The notes beneath the pieces were generated by a model. That model made no database searches and was not told where the DNA came from. It saw only the letters and a list, made by a program, of their open reading frames with translations. 36,786 bases of DNA, taken from Pyrinomonadaceae bacterium (GTDB lineage: Bacteria; Acidobacteriota; Blastocatellia; Pyrinomonadales; Pyrinomonadaceae). Positions 13,263 to 36,327 of the stretch are shown piece by piece (the first letter of the stretch is position 1; each line of letters begins with the position of its first letter). Both the position numbers and the translations under genes were made by a program. The DNA lies in the NCBI GenBank assembly GCA_036009085.1, contig DASYMM010000615.1:1-36786 (forward strand), written 5' to 3'.

Positions 13263-13395
13263 GTGACGAGTGACGAGTAACGAGTTGAAGACAAGATCAA
13301 GTTTTCCTTTAACCTTTCAGTTAATCTCTCTGTGACGAGCGAAAGACAAGTTTTTTTGTTTTAACTTGTCACTCGTCACCTGTCACTCGTCACTG
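13263..13395. repeat. GTGACNA-family heptamer-arm palindrome, copy 1
   Basis: Plus-strand arm gtgacgagtgacgagtaacgag (13263-13284). Inner hairpin gtgacgagcgaaagacaagtt / aacttgtcactcgtcac. Terminal arm ctgtcactcgtcactg ends at 13395. The TGA stop of the FHA gene (13390-13392) lies inside the terminal CAGTGAC. Confidence 0.9.
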
Positions 13396-14238
13396 CTTTT
13401 TGAATCTGACCTCGACATCGCCGAAGCCGACGACATCGCCGTCTTCGAGTTGGCGCGCTTCGCCGTAATTGATGCGCCTGCCGTTTATATAAGTTCCGTT
13501 TACCGAACCTGTGTCGGAAACGAGCAAAGTTCCTTCGCGGTTCATCAAAATCGCGGCGTGAATCTTCGAGACGCTCGGATGCGCGAGCGACAGATCGCAA
13601 TCCGTCGCTCGCCCGACGCTCAGGCGTCTGCCGCCCGGTTTGAAGTAGAGCGTCTGGTCTTCCGCCTCCTTGCCGATTTGGATGCGCGCGTGCACCGCTG
13701 TATTTTTCGCCGCCGCTGCTCCGAGAGACGACGAAGGCACGGCTCCTGCCGCTGCTTCTCCCGCCGCCGCACGCGCGCGCTCCTCATCCTCGCGCTGCAA
13801 CTCCTCTTCAAACTCGCCGAAGCTCGGATCGACCGCAATGCCCGTCGTGAAAATATCTACGAGCGTTTCCACTTCGACGGGCGCGAGCGTACGCAGGCGT
13901 TGGTCGTTGATGTGATCGATGGCGGCGGCCAGCACTTCGTTCTCCAACTCCCTGACCGATTCCGGCGGAGCCTCGGAATGAGTGCCCCACTCGACCTTGA
14001 GTTTCATCACGTGCGGCGCGATGCGCCCGCGCTTCGGGTCGTTGCGCACGCGTTCGTCAATCAAACGGTTCATGCGTTCGATCAGGCGCGTCGTCGTAAA
14101 ACCGCTCTGCGGTTCGAGTGTGCGACCGAGCGAACGGTCAACCACCGCGCCGACGCGATCCAGCACGCGCCTGAGCAGTCGCTCGGCCAGAGCTTCGTCG
14201 CGCTTCGGCACGCCCTCTTTTTTCTCTGTCTTGTCCAT
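13390..14238 (-). CDS. FHA-domain protein (second FhaA-like paralogue, first gene of the minus-strand cluster)
   Basis: C-terminal FHA core LSVGRATDCDLSLAHPSVSKIHAAILMNREGTLLVSDTGSVNGTYINGRRI. The N-terminal domain is similar in layout to the 5153-6007 product. Confidence 0.82.
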   Translation of the reverse strand: MDKTEKKEGVPKRDEALAERLLRRVLDRVGAVVDRSLGRTLEPQSGFTTTRLIERMNRLIDERVRNDPKRGRIAPHVMKLKVEWGTHSEAPPESVRELENEVLAAAIDHINDQRLRTLAPVEVETLVDIFTTGIAVDPSFGEFEEELQREDEERARAAAGEAAAGAVPSSSLGAAAAKNTAVHARIQIGKEAEDQTLYFKPGGRRLSVGRATDCDLSLAHPSVSKIHAAILMNREGTLLVSDTGSVNGTYINGRRINYGEARQLEDGDVVGFGDVEVRFKKQ

Positions 14239-14444
14239 GCGAATCTATACGCCCACACGCCGACGAGGTTCAGTCAACGTCTAACTGCTCAGAGTAAACT
14301 ACGCACGCAAAAGTTGCGCGCCGCGGGGGAGGGAATTGTAAATATTTTCGGGCGCGGACTATTTTAAGGGGAAAAGGGGAAAAGTAAAAAGGGGAAAGCT
14401 CGAAGCCGCCGTTTAGAACCGTTCTTATACAGAAAAAGCCAGAA

Positions 14445-14530
14445 AGGCGAAACCACGAAATCACACGAAGCAACACGAAAACGGACTAAATTTGTTTCGT
14501 GGCGTTTCGGGTAATTTCGTGGTTTCGCCT
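14445..14530. repeat. Imperfect palindrome of the CACGAAA family, copy b; possible terminator of the TrmH-family gene
   Basis: aggcgaaaccacgaaatcacacgaagcaacacgaaa (14445-14480) pairs with tttcgtggcgtttcgggtaatttcgtggtttcgcct (14495-14530). The outer 17 nt pair perfectly. On the minus strand a TTTTT run (14433-14437) follows the stem. Confidence 0.8.
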
Positions 14531-14565
14531 CTCTCGCTCCGATGTCGTTTGTTCCAACTTCCGCG

Positions 14566-15366
14566 CTACGCACTCGCCGCCGCACGCTGCCGCGCCGCTT
14601 CGTAAAGTATCACGGCGAGCGCGACCGCGACGTTCAAGCTTTCGACGGGCGGTTGCATTGGGATGCGTATGCGCTCGTCGGCCAGACGCGTTTCTTCGTC
14701 CGACAGCCCTCCGGCCTCCGCGCCCATGAGCACGGCGTAAGCGTCTGTCCAGACGAGATCGGTATGCGCCTGACGAGCCGCGAGGTCTGCGCTCACCGTG
14801 CGTATCCCGTGCGCGCCGCACCATGCGACGACTTCGGCGAAGTCCGCGTTCGTCCACAGCGGCAGGCGAAAACTCGACCCCATCGCGCCGCGCAAAGCTC
14901 TCGGTGAAAGCAGGTCGGTTGTGCCGGCGGTTGAGATCACGCCCGTCGCTCCCGCTGCCTCGGCCACGCGCAGCATCGCGCCCGCGTTCGCCGGATTGTT
15001 GACGCGATGCAGGACGACGAGCAGCGCATCTGCGCGGAGCGACTTCTCAAACGTCGCGCGATCCGTCGCCTGCCTCTGCGCGAGCAGGATGATCCCCTGC
15101 GGCGTCTTCGTGTCGCTCAAGGACGCGAAGACCGGCTCGCTGACGAGGTTGAAGCGCGGGTTCAGACGCTTGAGTTCGTCGAGCAGTCGTGCGGCTCGCG
15201 GGTCTGCGGCAAACTTCTCCGTGTAGAGCACCTCCTCGCAGGCGCGGCCGGAGCGCGCGGCCTCCTCGCACAAGCGCAAGCCTTCGACGAAGAGCGTGTC
15301 TTTCGTCGCGCCTCTGCTCGCGTCGCGTGCGCGCTGGATGAGTGGATTCTGGCGGCTCTTGATCAT
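14566..15366 (-). CDS. TrmH/SpoU-family RNA 2-prime-O-methyltransferase
   Basis: Motifs NPANAGAMLRVAEAAG, LLMGAEAGGLS, IPMQPPVESLNVAVALAVILYE. Start chosen at the ATG at 15366 (MIKSRQNPLIQRAR, a typical family N-terminus). An alternative ATG at 15405 would add 13 aa. Confidence 0.8.
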   Translation of the reverse strand: MIKSRQNPLIQRARDASRGATKDTLFVEGLRLCEEAARSGRACEEVLYTEKFAADPRAARLLDELKRLNPRFNLVSEPVFASLSDTKTPQGIILLAQRQATDRATFEKSLRADALLVVLHRVNNPANAGAMLRVAEAAGATGVISTAGTTDLLSPRALRGAMGSSFRLPLWTNADFAEVVAWCGAHGIRTVSADLAARQAHTDLVWTDAYAVLMGAEAGGLSDEETRLADERIRIPMQPPVESLNVAVALAVILYEAARQRAAASA

Positions 15367-15483
15367 CTGGACTGGTGCGGGACTTCCGCAGGAGTCGCGC
15401 GGCATTGTTCCGATTCAGACGGCATTGCTAAACTACACTACGGTTTTAATATCGCATCTTCCTTCGCGCCTTCTGGTTTACCT

Positions 15484-15527
15484 CTTTGCGCCTTTGCGAG
15501 AAATACAGTTCACGCAAAGGCGCAAAG
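15484..15527. repeat. Perfect 15-bp hairpin of the TTTGCGC family in a divergent intergenic region
   Basis: ctttgcgcctttgcg (15484-15498) is the exact reverse complement of cgcaaaggcgcaaag (15513-15527), with a 14-nt loop. A further cgcaaagg follows at 15541. Confidence 0.85.
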
Positions 15528-15578
15528 CCGGAACTTAAGCCGCAAAGGATTGAGTACTCTTGGAGAGAGTTGGCGCAG

Positions 15579-15941
15579 ATGAAGAGACGCGTGGTCGTGT
15601 TGGTTGAAGACCTTTTTTTCGCCGCGAAGATTCGCGCGACGGCGGAGCACCTCGGCGTCGAAGTGCTGTTTCCCCGCAGCCCGCAGGCTCTCCTTGAAGC
15701 ATTCAACCCGGACGCGCCCGCGCTCGTCATCGTTGACCTGCACCTGCAACGCGACGACCCGTTTCTCATCGCAGGCAAATTAAAGTCGGACGAGAAACTT
15801 AGCGCGACGCCGCTCGTCGGCTTCTTCTCGCACGTGCAGGTTGAATTGCAGAGGCGCGCGGAGGCCGCGGGTTTCGACCGCGTCTTGCCGCGCTCCGCGT
15901 TCACCAAACGCCTGCCGGAAATTTTGCAGGGACACTTTTAA
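15579..15941 (+). CDS. Stand-alone response-regulator receiver-like domain (atypical)
   Basis: ATG at 15579 preceded by GGAGAGAG. VVVLVEDLFF...ALVIVDLHL...PLVGFFSH gives a CheY-like beta-alpha pattern with a candidate acceptor Asp in VIVDL. The conserved Lys position reads VLPRSAF rather than KPF. Confidence 0.6.
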   Translation: MKRRVVVLVEDLFFAAKIRATAEHLGVEVLFPRSPQALLEAFNPDAPALVIVDLHLQRDDPFLIAGKLKSDEKLSATPLVGFFSHVQVELQRRAEAAGFDRVLPRSAFTKRLPEILQGHF

Positions 15942-15956
15942 ACGCCGAACTTGTTC

Positions 15957-16976
15957 TTAACCGACGGGCGCGGGCGCGATCACTTCATGGATGGCGCGCA
16001 CCTCCGTCACGAGTTGTTCGTACTGTTCGAGCGTGAGCGCTTGCGCGCCGTCCGAGAGCGCGCGTTCCGGTTGGTCGTGCACTTCGATGATCAGACCGTC
16101 TGCTCCGGTGGCGACCCCGGCGCGCGCGAGCGGCGTGACCATGTAATTCTTGCCCGTGCCGTGCGAGGGGTCTATGACGACGGGGAGATGCGAGAGGCGG
16201 CGCACGGCGGGGATGGCCGCGAGGTCGAGCGTGTTGCGCGTGTGCTGCGCGAAGGTGCGTATGCCGCGTTCGCACAGGACGACGTTGTAGTTGCCCTCGG
16301 CCATGATGTACTCGGCGGCGAGCAGCCATTCGTCGAGCGTGGCGGCGAGCCCGCGTTTGAGCAGGACGGGCAAGGGCGAGCGTCCCGCGCGTTTGAGCAG
16401 CGAGAAGTTTTGCATGTTGCGCGCGCCGAGTTGGATCACGTCGCCGTAGCGTTCGACGAGGTCAACGCCGTGTTCGTCCAACGCTTCGGTCACGATCTTC
16501 AACCCGTAGGCTTCGCGCACGTCGGCGAGAATCTTCAAGCCCTCTTCGCCGAGTCCCTGAAAAGCGTAGGGCGAGGTGCGCGGTTTGTACGCGCCGCCGC
16601 GAAAGAAACGCGCGCCGCTGCGGCGGACGGTTTCGGCAATGGCAAACGCCTGCGCGCGGCTTTCGATGGCGCAAGGCCCGGCGATGAGCGCGAGTTCATC
16701 GCCGCCGATGGCCGCATCGCCGACGCGCACCACCGTCTTCTCCGGTTTCAAATCGAGCGAGATCAGCTTATAGGGCTTCGTGACGCGAATCGCTTCGGCC
16801 ACGCCCGACATCGTTTCAAAGCGCGTGGCATCAACCGCGCCCTGATTGCCCGTCACGCCGATGGCCGTGCGATTCGCTCCCGGCAGCGGGTGCGCCCTCA
16901 ATCCAAGTTCCGACACGACGCGGACAACTTCTGCGACATCGTGCTCCGTCGCGTCGGCTTTCATCACAATCAGCAT
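15957..16976 (-). CDS. aroF: 3-deoxy-7-phosphoheptulonate (DAHP) synthase, type I-beta with N-terminal ferredoxin-like regulatory domain
   Basis: [14 protein letters not shown] (regulatory domain), [37 protein letters not shown] at 16976 preceded by GGAG. Confidence 0.88.
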
Positions 16977-16990
16977 AAGAAATCTCCAAA

Positions 16991-17206
16991 GTGACAATAA
17001 AACAGTGACGAGTGACAGGTGACGAGTGACGAGTTAAAGAAAAGATTTCAGCCACTTGATCCTTCAAGGTCTTCTTTGCGTCTGTGCGCCTTTGCGTGAG
17101 AATAGTTTTTCACGCAAAGGCGCACAGACGCAAAGAAAGACAGGAAGAAGTTTTGCCACGCACACTGAGTTTAAACTCGTCACTCGTCACTTGTCACTCG
17201 TCACTG
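16991..17206. repeat. GTGACNA-family palindrome, copy 2, composite: outer arms flank a nested TTTGCGC-family hairpin
   Basis: Outer arms are cagtgacgagtgacaggtgacgagtgacgagtt (17003-17035, with an extra gtgacaa at 16991) and aaactcgtcactcgtcacttgtcactcgtcactg (17173-17206). Confidence 0.9.
17072..17137. repeat. Perfect 27-28 bp hairpin of the TTTGCGC family, nested in the loop of the element above
   Basis: tctttgcgtctgtgcgcctttgcgtga (17073-17099) is the exact reverse complement of tcacgcaaaggcgcacagacgcaaaga (17110-17136). Loop is gaatagtttt. Confidence 0.92.
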
Positions 17207-17209
17207 TCT

Positions 17210-19282: not shown

Positions 19283-19472
19283 TGATGCGTGTGTCCTTCT
19301 CTCGCGTGTTTGACGGCGGCGACGCGAACACTGTTGCGGACTTTACGGAGCCATCCGCGCGCCACTCGAAAAGAGGGAAGTATAGCGCGAGCGCGTTGAG
19401 AGTGGCTAATCGCGCCGAAACCTCGCTTGACACTTCGTCGGTCGCCTCTGCTACCATCGCCGCCTGATTCCG

Positions 19473-22067: not shown

Positions 22068-22098
22068 TTTACGATTTGCGATTCAAGATTTACGATTC
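22068..22098. repeat. Half-element (one arm only) of the TTNACGA family directly upstream of the metG start
   Basis: tttacga tttgcga ttcaaga tttacga ttc. This is the same unit series as the right arms at 26056-26086 and 36265-36296. No matching left arm was seen. Confidence 0.65.
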
Positions 22099-22105: not shown

Positions 22106-24295
22106 ATGAAAACTTTTTACGTCACGACGCCGATTTATTACGCCAACAGTTTGCCGCATCTGGGTCACCTCTACACGACGATGGTGGCCGATTGCGTGGC
22201 GCGCTACCGGCGACAGCGCGGCTATGAAACCTATTTCCTGACCGGCACGGACGAGCACGGCATCAACGTCCAACGCGCCGCCGCGCGCAGCGGGCGCACG
22301 CCGAAAGAGCACGTGGATTATATCGTCGGCGAGTTGAAGCAGAGCTTCGCCGCCTTCGGACTCGACGGCGAGCACGGCGGCTACGACATCTTCATGCGCA
22401 CGACCGAGCCTTTTCATTATGAAGCCGTCGCAGAGTTCTGGCGTCGGGTCGCGCGCGGCACCACGCCGAAAGGGCGCGAGGCGATCTACAAAGGCCACTA
22501 CGAAGGCTGGTTCTGCGCGCCGTGCGCGACGTTCAAGACGGAGGACGAATACGCGAAGCCGGAACGCGAAGGCGACCCGCCGCTCTGCCTGATCCACGAA
22601 GCCCCGCTCGACCGCGTGGCGGAAGAGAGCTATTTCTTCCGTCTCTCCGATTACGGAGAAGCGTTGCTCGCGCTCTACGAGTCGCGGCCTGATTTCGTGC
22701 GCCCCGAGGCGCGTCGCAACGAGGTCGTCAGTTTTGTGACGCGCGGCTTGCAAGACTTATCCGTGAGTCGTCTGAAAACTTCCGTCAGTTGGGCGATCCC
22801 CGTGCCGGACGACCCGGCGCACACGATCTACATCTGGCTCGACGCGCTCTCGAACTACATCACCGCACTCGGCTGGGGAAGCGCGGAAGGCTTGCGCGAA
22901 AACATCTTCGATAAATTCTGGCCGGGCGTCCACCTGATCGGCAAAGACATCCTGCGCCAGCACGCGATCTACTGGCCTGCGTTTCTCATGGCTGCCGGAA
23001 TCGAACAGCCGCGCGCCGTCATCGCGCACGGGACGTGGCTCGATCATCTGGGGCGCAAGATGTCGAAGACGCTCGGCAACTCGATTGACTTGCCCACGCT
23101 GCGTCGCCATTTCGCGCCCGACATCGTGCGCTACTTTTCCCTGCGCGAGATGGCCTTCGGGCAGGACAGCAAGTTCGGTTACGAAGCCCTCATTGATCGC
23201 TCGAACAGCGATTTAGCGAGCGGCCTCGGCAATCTATCGAGCCGCACCTTGACGATGATCGGGCGTTACTGCGACGGGCTGACGCCTGCGCCCGACATCC
23301 CGGAAGAGAAACGCTTGCAGGCCAAGCGCGCGGGCGTTGATGCGGACGGCGGGGAACTCGCCAGCGCGCTCGAACACGCGCGCGATTCCTTCATACAGCA
23401 TTTCGAGGATTATGCTTTCGGGCGCGCGCTCGAAACGGTCTGGACGGTCATCGCACGCGCCGACAAGATGATCTCGGACGCGAAGCCCTGGGAGCTAGCG
23501 AAAGATGAGACGCAGCGGCAGACCTTGAACGCCGTCCTCTATCGCGCCGCCGAAACGCTGCGCTGGCTCGCCGTCCTGCTCCATCCCGCGATGCCCGATG
23601 CGACGCGCGCCATCTGGCAGCAACTAGGGCAGACGGACGACATCACGAAACACGATCCGGCAAAACTTCGATGGGGAGGTCTTCGAGCGGGCGAGCGCAT
23701 CGGCGAAGTTGCGCCCGTCTTCCCGCGCATAGATAAAGCAAAAATTATGGCTGAGATAGAAAAAGAGAACGAAGCGAAACAGGCCGCGCAGGCTGAAACC
23801 ACGGCGACGCAAGCCGGAACACACGCGACCGAAGCCGACGCCGCGCCCGGTTCGGCACACGCTGCCGAGACGACGACGCCACCGCCGCAACGCGGCGCGA
23901 CCGAAGGCGATGCCGCGCCCGCCACGCAACAAAATGCGCCCGGAGGCCCTGAAGGTATTGTCACTTTGATCGGCATCGAGGATTTCGTCAAAGTCGAAAT
24001 GCGCGTCGGGGAGATACTGACCGCCGAGCGCATCCCGAAGTCGGACAAACTGCTGCGCTTCACGATTGACCTCGGCGAAGCCGCGCCGCGACAGGTGCTC
24101 GCCGGAATCGCCGAATACTACGAACCCGACGCGCTCGTCGGTCGCAAGATCATCGTGGTGTCGAATCTGAAACCGCGCAAACTTCGTGGCTTTGAATCTC
24201 AGGGCATGGTGCTCGCCGCCTCCATCGGCGACGAAGGCCGCCCCGTCCTCGCCACCTTCAACGAAGACGTGCCGAACGGAGCGCGCTTGAAATAG
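22106..24295 (+). CDS. metG: Methionine--tRNA ligase with C-terminal tRNA-binding (Trbp111/EMAP-like) domain
   Basis: MKTFYVTTPIYYANSLPHLGHLYT (HIGH motif) and KMSKTLGN (KMSKS motif). C-terminal FVKVEMRVGEILTAERIPKSDKLLRFTIDLG. Start at ATG 22106 rather than the ORF-track start at 22049. Confidence 0.92.
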   Translation: MKTFYVTTPIYYANSLPHLGHLYTTMVADCVARYRRQRGYETYFLTGTDEHGINVQRAAARSGRTPKEHVDYIVGELKQSFAAFGLDGEHGGYDIFMRTTEPFHYEAVAEFWRRVARGTTPKGREAIYKGHYEGWFCAPCATFKTEDEYAKPEREGDPPLCLIHEAPLDRVAEESYFFRLSDYGEALLALYESRPDFVRPEARRNEVVSFVTRGLQDLSVSRLKTSVSWAIPVPDDPAHTIYIWLDALSNYITALGWGSAEGLRENIFDKFWPGVHLIGKDILRQHAIYWPAFLMAAGIEQPRAVIAHGTWLDHLGRKMSKTLGNSIDLPTLRRHFAPDIVRYFSLREMAFGQDSKFGYEALIDRSNSDLASGLGNLSSRTLTMIGRYCDGLTPAPDIPEEKRLQAKRAGVDADGGELASALEHARDSFIQHFEDYAFGRALETVWTVIARADKMISDAKPWELAKDETQRQTLNAVLYRAAETLRWLAVLLHPAMPDATRAIWQQLGQTDDITKHDPAKLRWGGLRAGERIGEVAPVFPRIDKAKIMAEIEKENEAKQAAQAETTATQAGTHATEADAAPGSAHAAETTTPPPQRGATEGDAAPATQQNAPGGPEGIVTLIGIEDFVKVEMRVGEILTAERIPKSDKLLRFTIDLGEAAPRQVLAGIAEYYEPDALVGRKIIVVSNLKPRKLRGFESQGMVLAASIGDEGRPVLATFNEDVPNGARLK

Positions 24296-24410
24296 TGACA
24301 AGTGACGAGTGACAAGTGACGAGTGACAAGTGACAAGTTAAAAAGAAAACTTGTTCTTAAATTTATCTTCAACTCGTCACTTGTCACTCGTCACTCGTCA
24401 CTTGTCACTG
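24295..24410. repeat. GTGACNA-family palindrome, copy 3
   Basis: Six left heptamers (gtgacaa gtgacga gtgacaa gtgacga gtgacaa gtgacaa, 24295-24336). Inner mini-hairpin acaagtt/aacttgt. Right arm aactcgtcacttgtcactcgtcactcgtcacttgtcactg (24371-24410). Confidence 0.92.
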
Positions 24411-25217: not shown

Positions 25218-25326
25218 TTCTCTGCGCCCCCGCTGCCGCTTTGCTCTCTGCGTCTCTGCGGTGAGCGATAGTTGATCAATCGTTCACCGCAGAGACACGG
25301 AGAACTCGCGGAGGAAGCGCAGAGAG
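25218..25326. repeat. Palindrome of the CGCAGAG family, copy b (arms in opposite order to the 4683 copy)
   Basis: ctctgcgccc...ctctctgcgtctctgcggtga (left arm), loop gcgatagttgatcaatcg, ttcaccgcagagacacggagaactcgcggaggaagcgcagagag (right arm). Starts 2 nt after the tatD stop. Confidence 0.8.
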
Positions 25327-25403
25327 TTAAGCTGACACTGGAACGCTTACTTGCCACTGCGCAACTTTTACTGCTTGGTCGTTAATGTTATAAATGCTGC
25401 GGC

Positions 25404-25461
25404 GTGAAAGTGACTATGTTTTGCTTTTAACTCGTCACCCGTCACTTGTCACCCGTCACTG
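25404..25461. repeat. GTGACNA-family element, copy 4, asymmetric (2 left units, 4 right units)
   Basis: gtgaaagtgac (25404-25414) and aactcgtcacccgtcacttgtcacccgtcactg (25429-25461). It ends 7 nt before the yajQ ATG. Confidence 0.75.
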
Positions 25462-25973: not shown

Positions 25974-26125
25974 GTGACGAGTGACGAGCGACAAGTGACG
26001 AGGAAAAGACGTAAATCGTGAATCGTACATCGTCGATAGAGTTAAAACTGCTTTCCTCTATTTGCGATTTACGATTCACGATTCGCTTGTCTTCACCCGT
26101 CACCCGTCACTGGTCACTCGTCACT
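25974..26125. repeat. GTGACNA-family palindrome, copy 5, composite with nested TTNACGA-family hairpin (26010-26086)
   Basis: Outer left arm gtgacga gtgacga gcgacaa gtgacga (25974-26001). Outer right arm cttgtcttcacccgtcacccgtcactggtcactcgtcact (26086-26125). Inner hairpin cgtaaatcgtgaatcgtacatcgtcgatagag / ctctatttgcgatttacgattcacgattcgc. Confidence 0.88.
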
Positions 26126-27153: not shown

Positions 27154-27216
27154 AACGACAAGCCGGAACGATGAGAAAGAGGAGCGAATATTGAACAACT
27201 CTATGCGGTTCTTATT

Positions 27217-27244
27217 CATCCCTCATCCCTCATCTCTCATCCCT
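27217..27244. repeat. Tandem heptamer tract (CATCCCT)x4, single-armed, ending 7 nt before the next start codon
   Basis: catccct catccct catctct catccct at 27217-27244. Only a weak possible partner (gatgagaaagaggag, approx 27169-27183). Confidence 0.8.
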
Positions 27245-27251: not shown

Positions 27252-27863
27252 ATGCCGGACGATAATCTCTTAGCCACGCTTGAGCAGAGTTTGCGCCAGA
27301 CGCGCGCCACGCGAAACCGTCTGGCCGCGCGCCTCGCCGACCTCGAACTCGAAGCCGAGAAACTACGCACCGAACTCGGCGAGATGGATGCCATCGCCAC
27401 GCAGACCGAGGCCGCCATGTTTCGCATCCTCTCCTCCGTGCTCAACACGGTGCCCGCAAAATCGTCGCCTTCGGACGCCGAGATTGATTGGGCTTTGCGC
27501 CGCGATGAAGCGCAGACGCGTAACAGCAACGCGCACCCGTCCGCCTATCAAGCCGTGCCGCGTCCCGCGCATCAAACCGTGCCGCGTTCGACTTTGCCGC
27601 CCGTGCGTACCGACGTGGAAGTGACGAGCGAGCGTTTTCTCGACCGCACGATCCCGCAGGCCACCGCGATGCTTTTGCGCGAAGCGGCCGCGCCGCTCCA
27701 CGTCAACGAGATTTATAATCGCCTGCTCGAAGGCGGCTTCCAGTTCACCGGCCACAACCCCACGATCAGCATCGCCGTCTCGCTCAATCGCAATCGCCGC
27801 TTTCGCAAAGTCGCCCCCGGCACCTTCGATCTCACCATCCGCGACGCCGCACAGGCTTCTTGA
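27252..27863 (+). CDS. Hypothetical protein: N-terminal coiled coil plus C-terminal HARE-HTH-like winged-helix domain
   Basis: C-terminal IPQATAMLLREAAAPLHVNEIYNRLLEGGFQFTGHNPTISIAVSLNRNRRFRKVAPGTFDL fits the HARE-HTH pattern. The N-terminal LATLEQSLRQTRATRNRLAARLADLELEAEKLRTELGEM is heptad-like. The ATG at 27252 is preferred to the TTG at 27246. Confidence 0.6.
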   Translation: MPDDNLLATLEQSLRQTRATRNRLAARLADLELEAEKLRTELGEMDAIATQTEAAMFRILSSVLNTVPAKSSPSDAEIDWALRRDEAQTRNSNAHPSAYQAVPRPAHQTVPRSTLPPVRTDVEVTSERFLDRTIPQATAMLLREAAAPLHVNEIYNRLLEGGFQFTGHNPTISIAVSLNRNRRFRKVAPGTFDLTIRDAAQAS

Positions 27864-28373: not shown

Positions 28374-28387
28374 GAAGGTATAAAAAA

Positions 28388-28609
28388 TTGAGTGATGAAA
28401 CTAAACTGATCGCGCTCTCAACCTTGTTTGAGGATGTATCGAGCGTGCGCGGCAAGATTCCCGTTCCGGTCGTCAAGGCACTTAAAGCCAAAGCCGGTGA
28501 CATGCTCGCTTTCGAGCGTCGGCCTGACGGCACGGTCGTCGTGCGTAAGTCCACCGCCGCCGAGCGCAAGGCGGGACAGAGCCGTCGGCAGGGCGGCGGG
28601 AAAAAATAA
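28388..28609 (+). CDS. SpoVT/AbrB-like small DNA-binding protein with basic tail
   Basis: VRGKIPVPVVKALKAKAGDMLAFERRPDGTVVVRK matches the looped-hinge-helix AbrB/MazE pattern. TTG start with GGAAGG 8 nt upstream. Lys/Arg/Gly-rich C-terminus. Confidence 0.55.
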   Translation: MSDETKLIALSTLFEDVSSVRGKIPVPVVKALKAKAGDMLAFERRPDGTVVVRKSTAAERKAGQSRRQGGGKK

Positions 28610-29633: not shown

Positions 29634-29742
29634 TACAATCCCACGCGTTCCCAACAGCTATCGAACTTGCGGACAAAACGGGACTTCCAGACGTAAGCGA
29701 CAAATCGCACACACGCGAGCGACGGATCGCTACAGCTGCGAG

Positions 29743-29790
29743 CGATAAATTGCTCGATAAATTGCTCGATAAACTGCGCTATAAATTACG
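29743..29790. repeat. Tandem 12-nt repeat x4, AT-rich, 33 nt upstream of the kinase-gene ATG
   Basis: cgataaattgct cgataaattgct cgataaactgcg ctataaattacg at 29743-29790. Confidence 0.9.
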
Positions 29791-29822
29791 CTTGGCGTCT
29801 CTCCGCACCGCGTCAAACATCC

Positions 29823-30875: not shown

Positions 30876-30945
30876 ATAATCGCTCGTTGAATTTGAATCT
30901 TGACGTGATTTGAAAGCGTTAATTTGAAATTATTAGAAGGTAACA

Positions 30946-32313: not shown

Positions 32314-32316
32314 AAG

Positions 32317-32415
32317 CAGTGATGAGTGACAAGTGACAAGTTAAAAACTAAGAACTAGGAATTAAAAACTTGTCTTGATTCTGGCTCGTCACTTGTCACT
32401 CGTCACTTGTCACTG
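32317..32415. repeat. GTGACNA-family palindrome, copy 6
   Basis: cagtgatgagtgacaagtgacaagtt (32317-32342). Inner pairing gacaagtt/aacttgtc. Right arm ctcgtcacttgtcactcgtcacttgtcactg ends at 32415. Confidence 0.9.
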
Positions 32416-32422
32416 ATTTCTT

Positions 32423-32974: not shown

Positions 32975-33909
32975 ATTGTCCGGGTTGCGGCGCACCTGTG
33001 ATCAGCGGGGCGCAGTTTTGTGGAGCGTGTGGAACGCGCATGACGCCGGGGACGCCCCCGCCCGCGTCGAATGTGTCGGGCGGAGGTGCGTGGGGCGGAG
33101 GTGCGGCGAGCGAAGGAACGACTGGTGGCGGTGGCATTGGTGGCAGCGGTCACGGCATCCATATCGACGCAGATTCGCGCGGGCAGGGGCGCGGCTACAG
33201 TTTTGAAATTTTGCACCAGCCGTCGTTTGCGCTCGCGGTGGTTCAGTTGCAGGCGGAACAGTCTATCCTCGCGGAAGCGGGCGCGATGGTTTCGATGTCT
33301 GCGAACGTCGAGTTGCAATCGCAGATGAAGGGCGGTCTGATGGGCGCGTTGAAGCGCGCGGTGGGCGGCGAGTCGGCCTTCGTCTCGACGTTTACGGCGC
33401 GGGGCGGCGCGGGCGAAGTCACGTTTGCGCCGGGCGCGCCGGGCGACATCGCGGCGATTGACATGAATAATCAGATGTTCATGGTGCAGTCGAGCTCGTA
33501 TCTGGCGGGCGACGCGAGTTTGACGGTTGACACGAAATGGGGCGGGGCGAAAACTTTCTTTGGCGGCGAGGGCTTGTTCGTCATGCAAGTTTCAGGGACG
33601 GGCTTGTTGCTGCTCACCTCTTTCGGCGCGATTCACCGGCGGACGCTCAAACCGGGCGAACGCTACGTGGTGGACACGGGGCATCTCGTGGCGTGGGAAG
33701 CCTCGATGCAATATTCTCTACGCAAGGCCGCGTCCGGTTTCTTCCGCACGATGGTTAGCGGCGAAGGCATCGTGGCGGAGTTTGCAGGCCCCGGCGAACT
33801 GTTGATTCAGACGCGAAACCTCGCGGCCTTCGCCGGACTATTGAAGCCTTTCTTCCCGTCGCAGGGCAGCGGCGGCGGCAGCGGCTTCAACCTCAATCTC
33901 GGCGGGTGA
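32971..33909 (+). CDS. AIM24/TIGR00266 (DUF124) family protein with N-terminal zinc ribbon and Gly-rich linker
   Basis: The ATG overlaps the LOG-gene stop (ATGA). MNCPGCGAPVISGAQFCGACG (CxxC...CxxC). Core AEAGAMVSMSANVELQSQMKGGLMGALKRAVGGESAFVSTF...GEGLFVMQVSGTG...HLVAWE is typical of the family. Confidence 0.78.
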   Translation: MNCPGCGAPVISGAQFCGACGTRMTPGTPPPASNVSGGGAWGGGAASEGTTGGGGIGGSGHGIHIDADSRGQGRGYSFEILHQPSFALAVVQLQAEQSILAEAGAMVSMSANVELQSQMKGGLMGALKRAVGGESAFVSTFTARGGAGEVTFAPGAPGDIAAIDMNNQMFMVQSSSYLAGDASLTVDTKWGGAKTFFGGEGLFVMQVSGTGLLLLTSFGAIHRRTLKPGERYVVDTGHLVAWEASMQYSLRKAASGFFRTMVSGEGIVAEFAGPGELLIQTRNLAAFAGLLKPFFPSQGSGGGSGFNLNLGG

Positions 33910-33937
33910 GAAGCTTTAACCCGCAGTTTGGAGCATT

Positions 33938-34903
33938 ATGTCGGCTTTAAGTGACCAGACGAAGTCTTCTCTGATTAACCTGCCACCGGGCGACGGGCGG
34001 CGCGTCTCGATCATCGGCGTGCCGCTCAGTTTCGGCGCGGGAACGGCGGGCGTTGATTTAGGCCCGGCGGCGATGCGCGTGGCGCGTCTCAATCAAAGGC
34101 TCGCGCTGCTCGGTTATGAAGTGCGCGATCTAGGCGATATGCGTCTGGAGCGACCGACGCACATCGCCGCGCCGCAGGACAAAGCGAAGTACATGCGCGA
34201 GATCAGCATCGCGTGCGAAGAACTCGCGGCGGAGGTGGAGCGCGTGATGCGTGCGGGCGAGTTTCCGATTGTGCTCGGCGGCGACCATTCCATCGCCGCA
34301 GGCTCGATAGCGGGCGCGGCGTCAGTCATGCACGAGCAGCAGAAACAGATCGGTCTCATCTGGTTCGACGCGCACGCGGACATGAACACGCCGGAGACGA
34401 GCCTCTCCGGCCACGTCCACGGCATGCCGCTCGCCGCGCTCCTCGGCTACGGCGCGCCGGAGATGACGCACATCGCGGGCTTCTCGCCCAAACTCGACCC
34501 GCGCTACTGCGCGCACATCGGCGCACGCGACCTCGACCCGGCCGAACGCGATCTGATTCGCGAACTCGGCATACGCTTCTTCACCATGCGCGAAATTGAC
34601 GAACGAGGGATGAGCGTGTGCATAGACGAAGCGATTGAAATTGCGAAGGGGGCGACGGGCGGTTATTACGTGACGCTCGACGTGGACGCGCTCGATCCGG
34701 TCGTCGCGCCGGGTTCGGGAACGGTCGTGCGCGGCGGGCTGACTTACCGCGAGTCGCACCTGGCTCTGGAGAAGATCGCCGAAGCGGGCGGCATGATCGC
34801 CTTTGAAGTAGTGGAAATCAACACCGCCCTCGACATCAACAACCGCACGGCGGAACTCGGCGTCGAACTCATCCTCTCGGCGATGGGCAAAACGATTCTA
34901 TAA
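33938..34903 (+). CDS. rocF: Arginase
   Basis: Motifs GGDHSIAAGS, WFDAHADMNTP, LDVDALDP, GGLTYRE. RBS GGAGCA. Confidence 0.85.
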   Translation: MSALSDQTKSSLINLPPGDGRRVSIIGVPLSFGAGTAGVDLGPAAMRVARLNQRLALLGYEVRDLGDMRLERPTHIAAPQDKAKYMREISIACEELAAEVERVMRAGEFPIVLGGDHSIAAGSIAGAASVMHEQQKQIGLIWFDAHADMNTPETSLSGHVHGMPLAALLGYGAPEMTHIAGFSPKLDPRYCAHIGARDLDPAERDLIRELGIRFFTMREIDERGMSVCIDEAIEIAKGATGGYYVTLDVDALDPVVAPGSGTVVRGGLTYRESHLALEKIAEAGGMIAFEVVEINTALDINNRTAELGVELILSAMGKTIL

Positions 34904-35039
34904 CAGTGACGAGTGACAGGTGACGAGTGACGAGCAAGAATCAAGACAAGTTTTAAGATAGGTTATCTTCTTCTCCAACTTGTCACTCGTCACCTGTCAC
35001 TTGTTAGTGTTTTAACTCGTCACTCGTCACTTGTCACTG
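34904..35039. repeat. GTGACNA-family palindrome, copy 7 (one left arm, two right arms)
   Basis: cagtgacgagtgacaggtgacgagtgacgag (34904-34934). Inner pairing gacaagtt/aacttgtc. Right arms aacttgtcactcgtcacctgtcacttgt and ttaactcgtcactcgtcacttgtcactg (ends 35039). Starts immediately after the arginase TAA. Confidence 0.9.
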
Positions 35040-35061
35040 TTCTCGTCATTGGAGTAAGGGA

Positions 35062-36198
35062 TTGAAGAGAAAAATCAGAGTCGGGGTGATTTTCGGGGGG
35101 CGTTCGGGCGAGCATGAGGTGTCGTTGCGTTCGGGGCAGGCGGTGATTGAGGCTATCGATCACGGAAAGTATGAAGTGATTCCGCTGGCGATTACGAAGA
35201 CGGGGGAGTGGTTGTCGCCAGCCGCCGCGATGGCTCTGCTGCCGCATGCGACGACCGGGTTGCTGTCGCGCGGGATGAGCGAGAACAGGGAAGCGTTGAC
35301 CATCGTGGGCGACCCTTCGCGCTCCGGTCTCGTCGCCGTGGGCAGCGACGGCGAGCGGTCTTCCTCGTCGCTGCCCGTTGACGTGGTCTTTCCCGTGCTG
35401 CACGGGACGTACGGCGAGGACGGCACGATTCAAGGTCTTTTCGAGATGGCCGATGTGCCTTATGTCGGGTGCGGCGTGCTCGCTTCGTCGTGTGGGATGG
35501 ACAAGGTGGCGATGAAGATTTTGTTCCGCGACGCGGGGCTTCCGATCTGCAAGCACCTCTGGTTTCTGCGCTCGGAGTGGGAGCGCGCGGGCGCGTCTAT
35601 CCTGCGTCGCGTGGCGCGCGAGATCGGATTTCCTTGCTTCGTCAAGCCTGCGAATCTGGGTTCGTCCGTCGGCATCTCGAAAGCGACAGACCGCCGCACG
35701 CTCGAAGCGGCGATCAACCTCGCCGCGCGTTATGATCGCAAGATCATCGTCGAAGAGGGACTCGACGCGCGCGAGATCGAGTGCGCCGTGATTGGCAACG
35801 ACGACCCGGAAGCGAGCCTGCCCGGCGAATACATCGTGCACGACCAGCAGGGCGCGTTTCTCGATTACACGGAGAAGTACAGCAACACAGGCCACGTCGA
35901 GTTCGTCGTGCCCGCGCCTATCTCGAAATCTCTAACCGCGCGCATCCGGCGCATGTCAATCGCCGCCTTCAAAGCCATAGACGGGACGGGACTCGCCCGC
36001 GTGGATTTTTTCCTCCGCCGCGACACAAACGAACTGCTCATCAACGAACTCAACACCAATCCCGGCTTAACAGATGTTTCCGGCTACCCCAAAATGTGGG
36101 CGGCCTCCGGCCTCTCCTTCCCCCAAGTCATAGACCGTCTCATCCAACTCGCCCTCGAACGACACAAAGACAAATCGCGCAACGAAACGAGTCTTTGA
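35062..36198 (+). CDS. ddl: D-alanine--D-alanine ligase
   Basis: [22 protein letters not shown] and the C-terminal ATP-grasp motif [17 protein letters not shown] start preceded by GGAGTAAGGG. Confidence 0.9.
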
Positions 36199-36201
36199 GA
36201 A

Positions 36202-36327
36202 CAGTGACGAGTGACAGGTGACAAGAGAAGGCAAGTAAATCGTGAATAGAGAAAACTCGCTTTCTTCTATTGACGATTTACGACTCACGCTTCACGGCTT
36301 TTTCTCGTCACTTGTCACTCGTCACTG
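36202..36327. repeat. GTGACNA-family palindrome, copy 8, composite with nested TTNACGA-family hairpin (36235-36296), between convergent genes
   Basis: cagtgacgagtgacaggtgacaag (36202-36225). Inner hairpin gtaaatcgtgaatagag / ttctattgacgatttac. Right arm ctcgtcacttgtcactcgtcactg (36304-36327). The TGA stop of the minus-strand gene (36322-36324) lies inside the terminus. Confidence 0.9.

Follow-up and report, generated by a model that had tools for sequence, protein, structure and literature searches.

Intergenic hairpins of inverted heptamer arrays in stop-to-start gaps of Pyrinomonadaceae housekeeping genes

Eight loci in a 36,786-nt stretch of DNA (the window) from a Pyrinomonadaceae (Acidobacteriota) soil bacterium, whose YajQ homologues are likewise from Pyrinomonadaceae, form one family of intergenic hairpin elements in which two tandem heptamer arrays are inverted relative to each other. 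This family is one of about 60 that jointly occupy the majority of stop-to-start gaps where neighbouring housekeeping genes of this lineage run in the same direction. With moderate confidence, we interpret the elements as transcribed intercistronic heptamer-repeat hairpins that grow by slippage, turn over as modules and probably act as sites of double-stranded RNA (dsRNA) processing or stability.

Structure and diversity of the elements

Over both strands, the unit GTGACNAGTGAC was counted 33 times, whereas 100 dinucleotide shuffles gave an expectation of 0.00. All matches fell within the eight loci listed in the initial annotation and none elsewhere in the window, and each of the eight copies was present at the coordinates given (Table 1). 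Period-7 arrays were called at every arm using Tandem Repeats Finder, and the arms, which carry 2-6 heptamers as given before, paired at 78-97% complementarity in an inverted-repeat scan. The layout is 5'-(GTGACRA)n – A/G-rich junction and loop – (TYGTCAC)n-3'. With regard to the termini described initially, GTCACTG closes 7/8 copies on the right, but exact CAGTGAC opens only 3/7 two-armed copies on the left. The inner mini-hairpin ascribed to most copies was found as GACAAGTT…AACTTGTC in copies 1, 3, 6 and 7 and as the variant GACGAGTT…AACTCGTC in copy 2, and GAGAACAGTGAC at 36197 is indeed the exact reverse complement of GTCACTGTTCTC at 25455. The description as palindromes fails for copy 4 (25404-25461), which is single-armed. 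A second, different periodic palindrome is nested in the loops of copies 2, 5 and 8.

Table 1. Periodic elements of the window, with adjacent genes and predicted folds
Feature	Position	Strand	Organisation	Context	Fold (kcal/mol; z)
Copy 1	13263-13395		left arm 13263-13283 (3 units); internal unit at 13332; mini-hairpin GACAAGTT/AACTTGTC 13345-13370; right arm 13366-13395 (4 units + TG)	FHA-domain gene (stop 13390, minus) / PBP transpeptidase gene (start 13254, minus)	-56.1 (RNA); -7.2
Copy 2	16991-17206		lone unit 16991; left arm 17005-17032 (4 units); right arm 17177-17206 (4 units + TG); 40-nt arms, 93% complementary	ArgRS stop / DAHP synthase start, both minus	-132 to -138
Period-8 palindrome	17072-17137		(CTTTGCGN)n / (NCGCAAAG)n; 31-nt arms, 97% complementary	loop of copy 2	
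Copy 3	24295-24410		left arm 24295-24336 (6 units); right arm 24374-24410 (5 units + TG)	MetRS stop TAG overlaps first unit / TatD ATG 24418	-69.5; -11.1
Copy 4	25410-25461	+	single-armed; one GTGAC at 25410; four TYGTCAC units 25432-25461	ends 7 nt upstream of yajQ ATG (25469); 5' leader, downstream of conserved promoter-like TTTTAC-17-TATAAA	z -2.1
Copy 5	25974-26125		left arm 25974-26001; right arm 26097-26125	yajQ stop (25966) / polyprenyl synthase ATG (26134)	-85.5
AATCGTN palindrome	26003-26094		(AATCGTN)n / (NACGATT)n, ATAGAG…CTCTAT core	nested in copy 5	
Copy 6	32317-32415		left arm 32319-32339 (3 units); right arm 32386-32415 (4 units + TG)	AspRS stop (32313) / LOG-family gene ATG (32423)	-42.2; -6.5
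Copy 7	34904-35039		left arm 34906-34933 (4 units); two right-type arms 34980-35000, 35017-35039	arginase stop (34903) / D-Ala-D-Ala ligase gene	-62.1; -7.4
Copy 8	36202-36327		left arm 36204-36224; right arm 36305-36327	convergent genes: ddl stop 36198; minus-strand ORF ending 36322	-74.1; -10.4
AATCGTN-type palindrome	~36235-36297			loop of copy 8	
Single start-proximal arm, AATCGTN family	22068-22098	+	TTTACGA TTTGCGA TTCAAGA TTTACGA	ends 7 nt upstream of MetRS ATG (22106)	
Single start-proximal arm	27216-27244	+	(TCATCCC)x4, degenerate purine-rich partner upstream	7 nt before ATG at 27252; conserved in relative L122	
Period-8 palindrome	4675-4782		(CGCAGAGN)n / (NCTCTGCG)n, termini CACCGCAGAG…CTCTGCGGTG	convergent genes	-83.3
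Related to 4675-4782	25245-25303				
Period-10 palindrome	11155-11218		(CACGAAANNN)n		
Second period-10 copy	14437-14538		CACGAAANNN family		

As transcripts, the GTGACNA copies were predicted to fold at -42 to -138 kcal/mol. In a shuffle test, from which copies 2 and 5 were left out because they were too long, the two-armed copies 1, 3, 6, 7 and 8 reached z-scores of -6.5 to -11 with 0/200 shuffles equally stable, and copy 4 folded weakly. The proposal that the stem can pair in several registers is supported by how rarely the best fold occurs in the ensemble (frequency 0.007-0.03 for some copies) and by the shifted-register DNA folds obtained. Rfam returned no match for the heptamer-arm elements.

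The elements had been described as a family at 13-36 kb only, but the window also holds other periodic-arm palindromes and single arms, and of its 22 gaps that measure 25 nt or more, approximately 14 are occupied by periodic hairpins, a single arm or direct repeats. In related loci totalling 956 kb, 140 inverted array pairs were identified, nearly all with period 7, representing about 60 unit families after pooling of the GTGAC variants (62 counted non-GTGAC). GTGACNA is the commonest of these many families, which share the hairpin design, and the same unit in the same order, with inner junctions that are alike (RAG-nn-AAAA), is met again at many unlinked loci and in many genomes. Stem length was at least 22 bp in 120/122 hairpins, with a predicted median of ~35 bp. 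At one locus (L006), a 5S rRNA gene is bracketed by inverted heptamer arrays, and IMG/VR viral contigs whose GC content ranges between 0.32 and 0.69 carry the same hairpins.

Mis-joins at periodic repeats can arise in short-read assembly, and many contigs of metagenome-assembled genomes end inside arrays (e.g. L011, L061, L098), as would be expected of an assembly or scaffolding artefact. The same design, and in several gaps the same family, nevertheless occurs at orthologous positions in independent assemblies of different studies, which contradicts an artefact. Two 5-Mb contigs are among the assemblies with such elements, and stop and start codons are respected; we consider the probability of an artefact negligible.

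Position and polarity relative to genes

The window genes are housekeeping genes and all eight copies lie in intergenic gaps, usually starting a few bases from the stop codon of one gene and ending ~8 nt before the start of the next (YTTATG), which lacks a Shine-Dalgarno (SD) sequence. In the element census, 78/93 classifiable elements were located between co-directional genes, 10/93 between convergent and 5/93 between divergent genes, with median distances of ~1 nt from stop to array and ~9 nt from array to start; the gene calls underlying these counts are crude, and one window element was misclassified. This filling of stop-to-start gaps within operons, the many unit families and the polarity relative to the downstream start codon had escaped the initial annotation.

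The left flanks are rich in A, the right flanks in T and pyrimidines. Together with the very stable stems and a location mostly downstream of coding regions, sometimes between convergent genes, this would suit intrinsic (Rho-independent), possibly bidirectional terminators at which transcription stops or is attenuated behind each gene. We regard this as improbable, since the next start ~8 nt past the stem leaves no room for a promoter, the tail is only ~50% T and not a U-tract, and single-armed variants stand in 5' leaders. A terminator consensus scan flagged no element (17 sites vs 24.5 in shuffles), although it was limited to 3-8-nt loops and is blind to elements of this kind.

The order of the arms is fixed. 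GTGAC came first in all ~53 genome loci with exact GTGAC/GTCAC runs in both arms, the reverse order never being seen among them, and the 5' arm had more G than C in 44/54 non-GTGAC families (P=3e-6). In 59 unit families, from loci chosen by a GTGAC pattern scan and with several trinucleotides tested, the 3'-arm units contained ATG in 0/59 (expected 4.7, P=0.005), GTG in 0/59 and SD-like 4-mers in 0/59 (expected 4.5). The start-proximal arm was also longer (4.59 vs 3.99 units; 32 vs 14 elements; P=0.003), and the single arms in the window were start-proximal in 3/3 cases. A start-proximal arm that is free of ATG, GTG and SD-like words and often longer points to selection at the mRNA level. Within a 7-nt array, any such word would be repeated in every one of the three reading frames, which would explain why the GTGAC arm comes first.

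Sense and antisense transcripts were equally foldable (31 vs 45, P=0.68; G·U pairs 185 vs 176); mismatches therefore carry no RNA-specific bias, which counts against an RNA role. Equal strand stability fits a palindrome acting as DNA, either as a binding array for a regulator or nucleoid protein or as a cruciform affecting supercoiling or replication. The arrays are periodic like iterated binding sites, and palindromic heptamer sites in Geobacter metallireducens are annotated as putative global-regulator sites (PMC2700814). However, ~60 units in one lineage and unit changes within a single gap make a sequence-specific binder unlikely, and the start-codon polarity is not predicted by a role in DNA only, so that we consider such sites very improbable.

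Slippage and module turnover in relatives

Orthologous gaps were compared in seven syntenic relatives and, for the two yajQ-flanking gaps only, in three short contigs. This presence/absence comparison, proposed at the outset, found the occupant present, absent or replaced. Unit numbers, nested or solo modules or the whole unit differed even at 98% YajQ identity, one gap carrying GTGACRA in the window vs AAGGGGN in the closest relative. AATCGTN modules were found alone or nested inside GTGACRA arms; the module of copy 5 stands alone in the orthologous gap of relatives L122 and L124. In L125, foreign palindromes are nested in the GTGAC loop. Some relatives have an empty 9-nt gap where others carry a hairpin, and across a range of 87-98% YajQ identity, genomes retain a hairpin of one kind or another in the same gap. 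Variable positions of the two arms matched in 64/140 cases vs 65.3 expected when units were permuted, and the arms are thus not mirror images. Arm length shifts in 7-nt steps, independently for each arm. Entire modules are acquired, placed within one another's loops or lost, so that one gap holds different occupants in close relatives.

The elements had been attributed to either mobility or replication slippage, and each is borne out in part, although neither stands as stated: slippage is well supported by unit-number differences and unmirrored arms, module turnover is evident, and classical transposition is not supported. Non-autonomous mobile elements (MITE/REP-like), with a transposase elsewhere, a preference for intergenic hairpin loops and incidental RNA effects, are an unlikely alternative. 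Mobility would account for the recurrence of one unit, order and junction at unlinked loci and genomes, for gap occupancy that differs among close relatives, for nesting in several combinations (the L125 loop included) and for the hairpins on viral contigs. It is opposed by the lack of a target-site duplication (longest direct flank match 3.08 nt on average vs 3.24 in re-paired flanks) and of a GTAG/CGTC head, by arms that behave as two separate arrays and not like copies of a single master element, and by stop-codon abutment too precise for random insertion. No RAYT or transposase was found among the window genes, as noted before, and tblastn with RAYT and IS200 TnpA found no Y1-transposase homologue in the 1.8 Mb searched, a weak negative given the approximate query sequences.

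Somewhat less probable again is a neutral by-product of replication, in which intergenic hairpins grow by slippage in 7-nt steps with neither function nor mobility, and selection purges harmful variants. Such growth agrees with the dominance of period 7 and with the rank of heptamers as the most frequent unit of long simple-sequence repeats in prokaryotes, for which polymerase slippage has been given as the cause (Mrazek 2007, cited through PMC4679880 and PMC4692102). It also agrees with freely varying unit numbers, independent arms and some empty gaps, and the lack of ATG and SD-like words in one arm can be taken as the outcome of negative filtering alone. In-situ growth cannot, however, swap GTGACRA for AAGGGGN between genomes with 98%-identical YajQ, and it leaves unexplained both the dominance of few units across loci and genomes and hairpin persistence in one gap.

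Comparison with known systems and proposed role

Periodic arms, initially called unusual, are so in comparison with REP/BIME, but inverted tandem heptamer pairs have already been described in Xanthomonas, cyanobacteria and Geobacter. REP/BIME and REPIN elements have been proposed to act in mRNA stabilisation, termination and supercoiling (PMC3733652, PMC3116915). They resemble the present elements as abundant extragenic palindromes, mostly in co-directional or convergent gaps downstream of coding regions, and as plausibly transcribed RNA elements. REPs are 20-40 bp long and non-periodic with an unpaired GTAG or CGTC tag, those with GTAG being associated with RAYT genes, whereas the arms here are periodic, 14-42 nt long and untagged, and no RAYT was found (1.8 Mb, approximate queries).

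Xanthomonas campestris and X. axonopodis carry intergenic tandem GGGAATC heptamers in inverted pairs (Rehm et al. 2015, PMC4692102). Two nearby convergent arrays, capable of forming a stem-loop or cruciform, were counted in 70-75 cases per genome (PMC4692102). On one reading of 'convergent', the G-rich array comes first, as it does here. Xanthomonas has one unit family, studied for G-quadruplexes, in contrast to ~60 units, nested modules, GTGACRA without G-tracts and filled stop-to-start gaps in an SD-poor acidobacterium. The cyanobacterial STRR units, which Mazel reportedly gave in 1990 as CCCCAGT, TTGGTCA and CAACAGT, differ from GTGACNA, as does the phylum. STRR are 7-bp intergenic tandem repeats capable of forming hairpins between co-transcribed genes, e.g. 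hupS-hupL, with a proposed effect on transcript stability or translational coupling (PMC2670836). Nesting, turnover and a start-codon polarity rule were not described for STRR in the literature searched.

The single start-proximal arms resemble the TAACTGA direct heptamers of marine Beggiatoaceae, cyanobacteria and Bacteroidetes (MacGregor 2015, PMC4679880), which occur as 2-6 repeats at ~170 intergenic sites, mostly a few nt upstream of start codons without canonical ribosome-binding sites, and have a patchy phylogenetic distribution with no evident transfer mechanism (PMC4679880). Those arrays are almost all direct (one indirect repeat in 170), whereas the inverted pair is the rule here. In the hmw1A 5'-UTR of H. 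influenzae, an (ATCTTTC)n array forms one arm of a long RNA hairpin that is cleaved by RNase III, which alters expression, and the repeat number shifts by slippage (PMC12721329). This heptamer array in a hairpin just upstream of a coding region is the best experimental precedent for how the present elements might work, although it is a single phase-variable pathogen locus rather than a dispersed family, and only its 5', pyrimidine-rich arm is periodic, the other being a G-rich region.

Given their location inside operons, the elements would be transcribed and would then fold into long dsRNA stems. Selection on the transcript would have purged AUG, GUG and Shine-Dalgarno-like words from the start-proximal arm. 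The most likely mode of action would be a sequence-independent intercistronic dsRNA structure, serving as a processing site (RNase III type) and/or a barrier to 3'-exonucleases and thereby setting the relative stability and translation of neighbouring cistrons, with stem length tuned by slippage. Against this RNA interpretation, the hairpins are dispensable in some lineages, where the same gap can be 9 nt, and the recurrence of GTGACRA at many unlinked loci and genomes is left unexplained. Many copies may be merely tolerated rather than useful. The elements belong to a known, poorly understood kind of bacterial repeat, which is unusually dense, diverse and fast-changing here.

Heptamer-armed hairpins between the genes of the window

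A real and abundant family of inverted heptamer arrays lies between stop and start codons. All eight GTGACNA loci of the initial annotation were borne out, each with a GTGACNA run on the left and a complementary NNGTCAC run on the right, but copy 4 carries a single arm; 7 of the 8 copies are two-armed, with two complementary arrays near each other that are capable of forming a stem-loop. Matches to GTGACNAGTGAC on both strands numbered 33, against 0.00 expected from 100 dinucleotide-preserving shuffles, and all fell inside the eight loci. Every arm was a period-7 array of 2.4-6.4 copies according to Tandem Repeats Finder (TRF), arm pairing was 78-97% complementary in an inverted-repeat scan, and the elements measured ~60-215 nt with periodic arms of 14-42 nt, often with a second palindrome nested inside. 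Another, different periodic palindrome was held in the loops of copies 2, 5 and 8. The CAGTGAC left terminus ascribed to the family was exact in 3 of the 7 two-armed copies and inexact in the remaining 4, and the inner mini-hairpin GACAAGTT/AACTTGTC, thought to occur in most copies, was present in about half.

RNA folds of the two-armed copies reached -42 to -138 kcal/mol. In the RNA shuffle test, which took in copies 1, 3, 6, 7 and 8, z-scores were -6.5 to -11 and 0 of 200 shuffles were equally stable, and DNA folds of copies 3, 6 and 8 gave z-scores of -4.7 to -9.1. The best fold made up just 0.7-3% of the ensemble in some copies, and copy 3 folded as DNA in a register displaced by one unit, both of which support pairing of the stem in several registers, as had been proposed. 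That the elements serve as DNA-level binding sites is a far-fetched explanation.

The window (G+C 61%) carries a housekeeping gene set: PBP transpeptidase, FtsW, PP2C phosphatase, Ser/Thr kinase, ArgRS, DAHP synthase, MetRS, TatD, YajQ, polyprenyl synthase, AspRS, arginase and D-Ala-D-Ala ligase, where the names AspRS and arginase were taken from Pfam annotation of syntenic loci. All eight copies are intergenic and flanked by ORFs with Pfam-supported products, seven between co-directional genes and one between convergent genes. Elements typically start at the stop codon of the preceding gene or a few bases from it, the TAG stop at copy 3 overlapping the first heptamer unit, and end 7-10 nt 5' of the downstream ATG. 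Starts downstream of elements are without a Shine-Dalgarno (SD) sequence. Among 96 called genes of seven syntenic relatives, an SD-like 4-mer at -20..-4 was found in only 18, 84 starts were ATG and the two bases preceding the start codon were most often T (43% and 51%); in hairpin-bearing gaps the start context is typically YTTATG.

YajQ is encoded between copies 4 and 5; its nearest relatives are 87-98% identical and all come from metagenome-assembled genomes (MAGs) of Pyrinomonadaceae or Blastocatellia. An exact-protein look-up of the window TatD returned no record. A promoter-like TTTTAC-17 nt-TATAAA upstream of yajQ (window ~25372-25405), embedded in GCAACTTTTACYGC…GTTAATGTTATAAATGCTGCGG, was kept in the window, in five of the syntenic relatives (L122, L001, L123-L125) and in three short yajQ contigs (L217-L219), with L002 keeping the -10 part. 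The gap sequence around this motif was not conserved, so that yajQ probably has a promoter to itself, with the single-armed array in the yajQ 5' leader. Elsewhere, a 73-aa ORF on the forward strand (window 28388-28609) had weak Pfam matches to MazE/PrlF (AbrB-fold antitoxin; E ~1e-3, under the curated cut-off) and no evident toxin partner; its gap measures 279 nt, against 53-68 nt in L001 and L123-L125, and it therefore looks like a lineage-specific inserted small gene.

GTGACNA is one family among many in a lineage-wide system of heptamer-armed intercistronic hairpins. Approximately 14 of the 22 window gaps of at least 25 nt contained palindromes, single arrays or direct repeats of such kinds. 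The direct repeats between the NTP-transferase and APH genes were missing from the relatives' orthologous gap, which is otherwise well conserved and always starts with TGATACAATCC, and the AAGGGGAA unit is like the hairpin arms filling the MetRS-TatD gap of L122.

Positions of repeat features in the window, and occupants of two orthologous gaps in the window and its relatives
Feature	Unit or type	Locus	Position
Copy 1	GTGACNA	window	13263-13395
Copy 2	GTGACNA	window	16991-17206
Copy 3	GTGACNA	window	24295-24410
Copy 4	GTGACNA	window	25404-25461
Copy 5	GTGACNA	window	25974-26125
Copy 6	GTGACNA	window	32317-32415
Copy 7	GTGACNA	window	34904-35039
Copy 8	GTGACNA	window	36202-36327
Nested palindrome, copy 2 loop	CTTTGCGN	window	17072-17137
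Nested palindrome, copy 5 loop	AATCGTN	window	26003-26094
Nested palindrome, copy 8 loop	AATCGTN	window	~36235-36297
Palindrome	period 8	window	4675-4782
Palindrome	period 8	window	25245-25303
Palindrome	period 10	window	11155-11218
Palindrome	period 10	window	14437-14538
Single array directly 5' of start codon		window	22068-22098
Single array directly 5' of start codon		window	27216-27244
Direct repeats, NTP-transferase to APH gap	period 12/23, GCGATAAATTGCTC GATAAATTGCTC GATAAACTGCGC TATAAATTACGC	window	29696-29787
Direct repeats in 327-nt gap, adjoining period-10 palindrome	(AAGGGGAA)x4	window	14366-14397
MetRS to TatD gap	GTGACRA	window, L124, L125	
MetRS to TatD gap	AAGGGGN	L122 (among closest relatives, YajQ 98% identity)	
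MetRS to TatD gap	TTGTCAG/CTGACAA	L001	
MetRS to TatD gap	CAGTTTT/CTGAAAA	L002	
MetRS to TatD gap	palindrome without periodicity	L003	
YajQ to IspB gap	GTGACRA with AATCGTN nested	window	
YajQ to IspB gap	AATCGTN alone	L122, L124	
YajQ to IspB gap	GTGACRA alone	L001, L125, L003, L217	
YajQ to IspB gap	GC-rich variant	L123	
YajQ to IspB gap	GGAGTCT	L002	

For the wider distribution, 185,579 species genomes were scanned for GTGACRAGTGACRAGTGAC and at least 118 stretches matched. Among the matches listed, about half were from Pyrinomonadaceae, Blastocatellia or other Acidobacteriota and the others from Chloroflexota, Terriglobia, Bacteroidota and more; some of these others that have 21-nt spacing look like coding repeats. 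TRF was run on 126 loci (956 kb) and found 1312 arrays, 607 of them with period 7, and 140 inverted array pairs with complementary units (Pyrinomonadaceae 88, Thermomicrobiales 12, other Acidobacteriota 12, Terriglobia 8); as the loci were picked by the GTGAC pattern, these pair counts are not unbiased densities, though the pattern did not select for the non-GTGAC families. Unit families numbered ~60 (62 counted as non-GTGAC), nearly all with period 7.

On a Thermomicrobiales MAG contig (L019, DATBFX010000377.1, 499-7699), six different heptamer-armed hairpins with the units AGTGGCA, AGCCGGT (twice), GGCGGGA, AGTCTCA and CGAGCTT lie within 8 kb, so that one Chloroflexota lineage or more has this architecture at high density, provided that the MAG was binned correctly. 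On a Cloacimonadota MAG contig (L006, JAZHDE010000079.1, 4865-5118), inverted heptamer arrays, (CTTGTCA)5 and (AAGTGAG)n, flank a 5S rRNA gene (Rfam RF00001, 4952-5068, minus strand, 104.6 bits) at the position of an rRNA processing stem, with the arm order opposite to that of the intercistronic elements and the 3' end of the 23S gene just beyond. Among IMG/VR loci L128, L164 and L206 (GC 0.36-0.38) and L134, L170, L182 and L196 (one 44.8-kb contig), low-GC viral contigs have (GTGACGA)3…(TCGTCAC)3 arms flanking a 120-nt AT-rich core with a MITE-like look. One viral contig, IMGVR_UViG_3300011986_000265, gave eight matches to the GTGAC pattern. Phages may carry or spread GTGAC arrays.

Turnover of hairpins in orthologous gaps

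Seven syntenic relatives, reached via YajQ homologues (L001-L003 and L122-L125, YajQ identity 87-98%), and three further short contigs (L217-L219, YajQ identity 98%) were compared with the window; gene order is conserved among them and the same gaps are thus comparable. In the orthologous-gap comparison, proposed as a means to separate mobility from ancient conservation, the presence of a hairpin in the gap persists and its sequence does not. Unit counts were unequal between all orthologues. In L125 (8712-9062), the loop of the GTGACRA hairpin between MetRS and TatD contains a 280-nt foreign insert of other, non-periodic palindromes (GTCCCGGAGGGAC, CCCAGCGATTGATCGCTGGG), which we take as an example of foreign elements landing in a hairpin loop. 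Downstream of IspB, the polyprenyl synthase gene after yajQ, the gap is only TAAAATATG in L003 versus 100-130 nt in other relatives. Regulatory-looking gaps, such as those from NTP-transferase to APH and from hyp200 to hyp119, are conserved in sequence and without a periodic hairpin.

Arrays are therefore altered in steps of whole units, and modules appear, become nested and vanish again over periods that are short relative to protein divergence. Since the orthologous gaps were reliably hairpin-occupied in the assemblies of the relatives, an assembly artefact was ruled out, its probability being vanishingly small. Arrays of GTGACRA were also met at contig edges (the match lying at position 1-19 or else at the end of the contig) in L011, L061, L098 and other MAG contigs, and appear to break short-read assemblies.

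Mobilisation by a transposase not seen here was weighed against the flanks and the gene content. REP elements are short and non-periodic and have a GTAG or CGTC tag (PMC3733652). The heptamer-armed hairpins share the genomic distribution of REP and differ in length, periodicity and tag: a REP/BIME is an imperfect palindrome of 20-40 bp, whereas the GTGACNA elements are longer and have periodic arms. Position matrices of 51 elements had no GTAG/CGTC tag at the element ends, and CGTC occurred in elements only within the repeated unit TCGTCAC. The longest match between left and right 16-nt flanks averaged 3.08 nt, against 3.24±0.11 for re-paired flanks, and no element had a flank match of 6 nt or more, leaving room for a 2-nt target-site duplication. 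Gene annotation agreed with the earlier statement that the window has no transposase gene, and neither a RAYT (Y1 HUH transposase) gene nor an insertion sequence is present in it; tblastn with RAYT and IS200 TnpA had no match in 1.8 Mb of loci, a weak negative. Such mobilisation is unlikely.

Anatomy of the elements and start-codon signals

Gene calls around the elements were crude, being flank-based on open frame and GC3 periodicity. Among 93 classifiable elements from Acidobacteriota and Thermomicrobiales loci, 78 were co-directional, 10 convergent and 5 divergent with respect to their flanking genes, approximate counts given that at least one window element was misclassified by the gene caller; this placement, 3' of coding regions and between co-directional or convergent genes, is REP/BIME-like. 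The median distance was ~1 nt from stop to array and ~9 nt from array to start, and the median inter-arm spacer was 23.5 nt. Predicted hairpins had at least 22 bp in 120 of 122 cases (median 35.5 bp). In the position matrices, the outer ends of GTGAC elements are A|GTGAC and GTCAC|T, with an A-rich left flank and a T- and pyrimidine-rich right flank, and the inner junctions are RAG-nn-AAAA.

The arms slip independently and modules turn over. Maintenance of mirror-image arms by template-switch correction found no support at the outer ends, where matches were 64 of 140 versus 65.3 expected, with only a weak mirror signal at the inner ends (75 vs 65.9 expected, P=0.026). As the arms are not mirrored at variable positions, they behave as two independently slipping arrays and not as a palindrome kept perfect by template switching. 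RNA-specific selection was likewise unsupported: sense and antisense folds were equally stable (the sense strand was the stabler one 31 times and the antisense strand 45 times, P=0.68), G·U pairs were equally numerous, and the G·U-over-A·C bias expected of RNA selection was not found, the mismatches being without an RNA-specific signature.

Rfam 15 at the gathering score gave 0 matches across the whole window. A consensus terminator scan flagged no element, but it counts only loops of 3-8 nt and is blind to these hairpins. The sequence after the stem is ~50% T and the next ATG follows ~8 nt from the stem; a classical intrinsic terminator with a short GC-rich stem, small loop and U-tract was rejected on these features, which also speak against the elements being leaky terminators, a very doubtful reading.

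A palindrome is identical on both strands, and arm order is therefore an intrinsic property of the element. In the collected genome loci with exact GTGAC/GTCAC runs in both arms, the GTGAC arm came first in ~53 pairs, as counted from per-locus rows, and second in 0; on viral contigs the numbers were 21 and 5. The 5' arm of the 62 other unit families was purine-rich in 45 and pyrimidine-rich in 16 (P=3e-4), with G>C in 44 and G<C in 10 (P=3e-6). Units of the 3' arm lacked ATG in all 59 families (0 vs 4.7 expected with letters shuffled per unit, P=0.005), as well as GTG (0/59, expected 1.6) and 4-mers of the extended SD AAAGGAGGTGATC (0/59, expected 4.5), and SD-like 5-mers were enriched in 5' arms (11 vs 5.5 expected, P=0.012). 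When elements were oriented by their flanking genes, the arm nearer the start had more units in 32 elements and fewer in 14 (Wilcoxon P=0.003), with mean lengths of 4.6 units for start-proximal and 4.0 for stop-proximal arms, and all three single-armed arrays in the window are of the start-proximal type.

Element polarity is thus tied to start-codon signals. An array of 7-nt units repeats any trinucleotide in three frames, so that an AUG- or GUG-containing arm beside an SD-less start would offer competing starts in every frame. We read the arm polarity as having been shaped by selection at the transcript level, a reading that would apply to useful and to merely tolerated elements alike; that the elements are a neutral by-product of slippage filtered by selection is rather improbable. 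Two further ideas on polarity were discarded. Units of the 5' arm contain stop trinucleotides more often than those of the 3' arm (25 vs 9 discordant families), but base composition fully accounts for the excess (32 observed, 30.3 expected) and 5' arms as all-frame stop-codon barriers were dropped; a relaxed polarity between convergent genes was dropped because there are too few elements, they belong to no other families than those found elsewhere and at least one classifier error is involved.

Known heptamer repeats and the proposed role of the stems

Bacterial tandem heptamer repeats (STRR) have been on record since 1990. The STRR units of Mazel 1990 are reportedly CCCCAGT, TTGGTCA and CAACAGT. 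GTGACRA is unlike these and unlike the described GGGAATC and TAACTGA, and none of the five turned up among the unit families here. Of the long simple-sequence repeats (SSRs) in prokaryotes, heptamers are the commonest, which has been attributed to polymerase slippage (Mrazek 2007, as related in PMC4679880 and PMC4692102). Cyanobacterial 7-bp STRR form hairpins between co-transcribed genes, for example hupS-hupL, with a possible effect on transcript stability or translational coupling (PMC2670836). Xanthomonas genomes hold 70-75 convergent GGGAATC array pairs at conserved intergenic positions with variable length and sequence (PMC4692102), five tandem heptamers make up palindromic sites in Geobacter metallireducens (PMC2700814), (GATAGRA)n satellites are described from Chloroflexus aurantiacus (PMC6749651) and marine Beggiatoaceae have ~170 TAACTGA arrays just 5' of start codons without ribosome-binding sites (PMC4679880). 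The one heptamer-hairpin case studied experimentally is the hmw1A leader of H. influenzae, where the transcribed (ATCTTTC)n is one arm of a long hairpin whose cleavage by RNase III raises expression, and where a change of repeat number needs transcription, the hairpin and RNase III (PMC12721329).

The elements resemble STRR and long heptamer SSRs in having tandem head-to-tail 7-nt units, intergenic sites and inverted pairing. In the literature consulted, inverted or tandem heptamer repeats have been repeatedly described and never explained, and the search turned up no account of them in Blastocatellia, Pyrinomonadaceae, Chloracidobacterium or other Acidobacteriota. Heptamer-armed hairpins are a known kind; the GTGACRA family and the host phylum are new, and dozens of unit families, module nesting, replacement of the occupant in a conserved gap and a lack of start and SD-like words in start-proximal arms are features unreported for known examples.

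We infer that the elements are transcribed as part of operon mRNAs, where they fold to long dsRNA stems. There is about an even chance that, description included, they constitute a sequence-independent intercistronic stem that acts as an RNase processing site and/or 3'-exonuclease block, being cleaved by a double-strand-specific RNase and/or stopping 3' exonucleases, with slippage tuning the stem length. Such a role would resemble what was proposed for REP and STRR and demonstrated for hmw1A. A bolder and quite unlikely proposal is that heptamer hairpins are a self-renewing, sequence-independent punctuation of operon mRNAs or a means of translational coupling in SD-poor bacteria such as Pyrinomonadaceae. 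Slippage of 7-nt units would then build long dsRNA stems in nearly all stop-to-start gaps, and the stem base would gather the upstream stop (~1 nt) and the downstream start (~9 nt), directing RNase III cleavage and/or passing terminating ribosomes to the next cistron in a shunt-like translational coupling. As 7 is not a multiple of 3, a forbidden AUG, GUG or SD-like word would recur in every frame and polarity would be enforced; new modules would enter old loops while outer arms decay, so that the gap would stay occupied as its sequence is replaced. None of the readings explains why a handful of units, GTGACRA foremost, turn up again and again at unlinked loci, across many genomes and on viral contigs as well.

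For bacterial tandem heptamer repeats, the commonest long simple repeat in prokaryotes, the lineage is an unusually rich natural experiment, with dozens of unit families, near-saturated intercistronic gaps and many sequenced relatives to compare, and the comparison gives testable rules: independent arm slippage, module nesting and replacement, and a start-proximal arm without start and SD-like words that tends to be the longer one. Annotation of Acidobacteriota and Chloroflexota genomes should reckon with heptamer arrays, inside which several MAG contigs end. Should the stems act as processing or coupling sites, they would be among the main factors that set operon expression in a major soil phylum which is difficult to approach by experiment.
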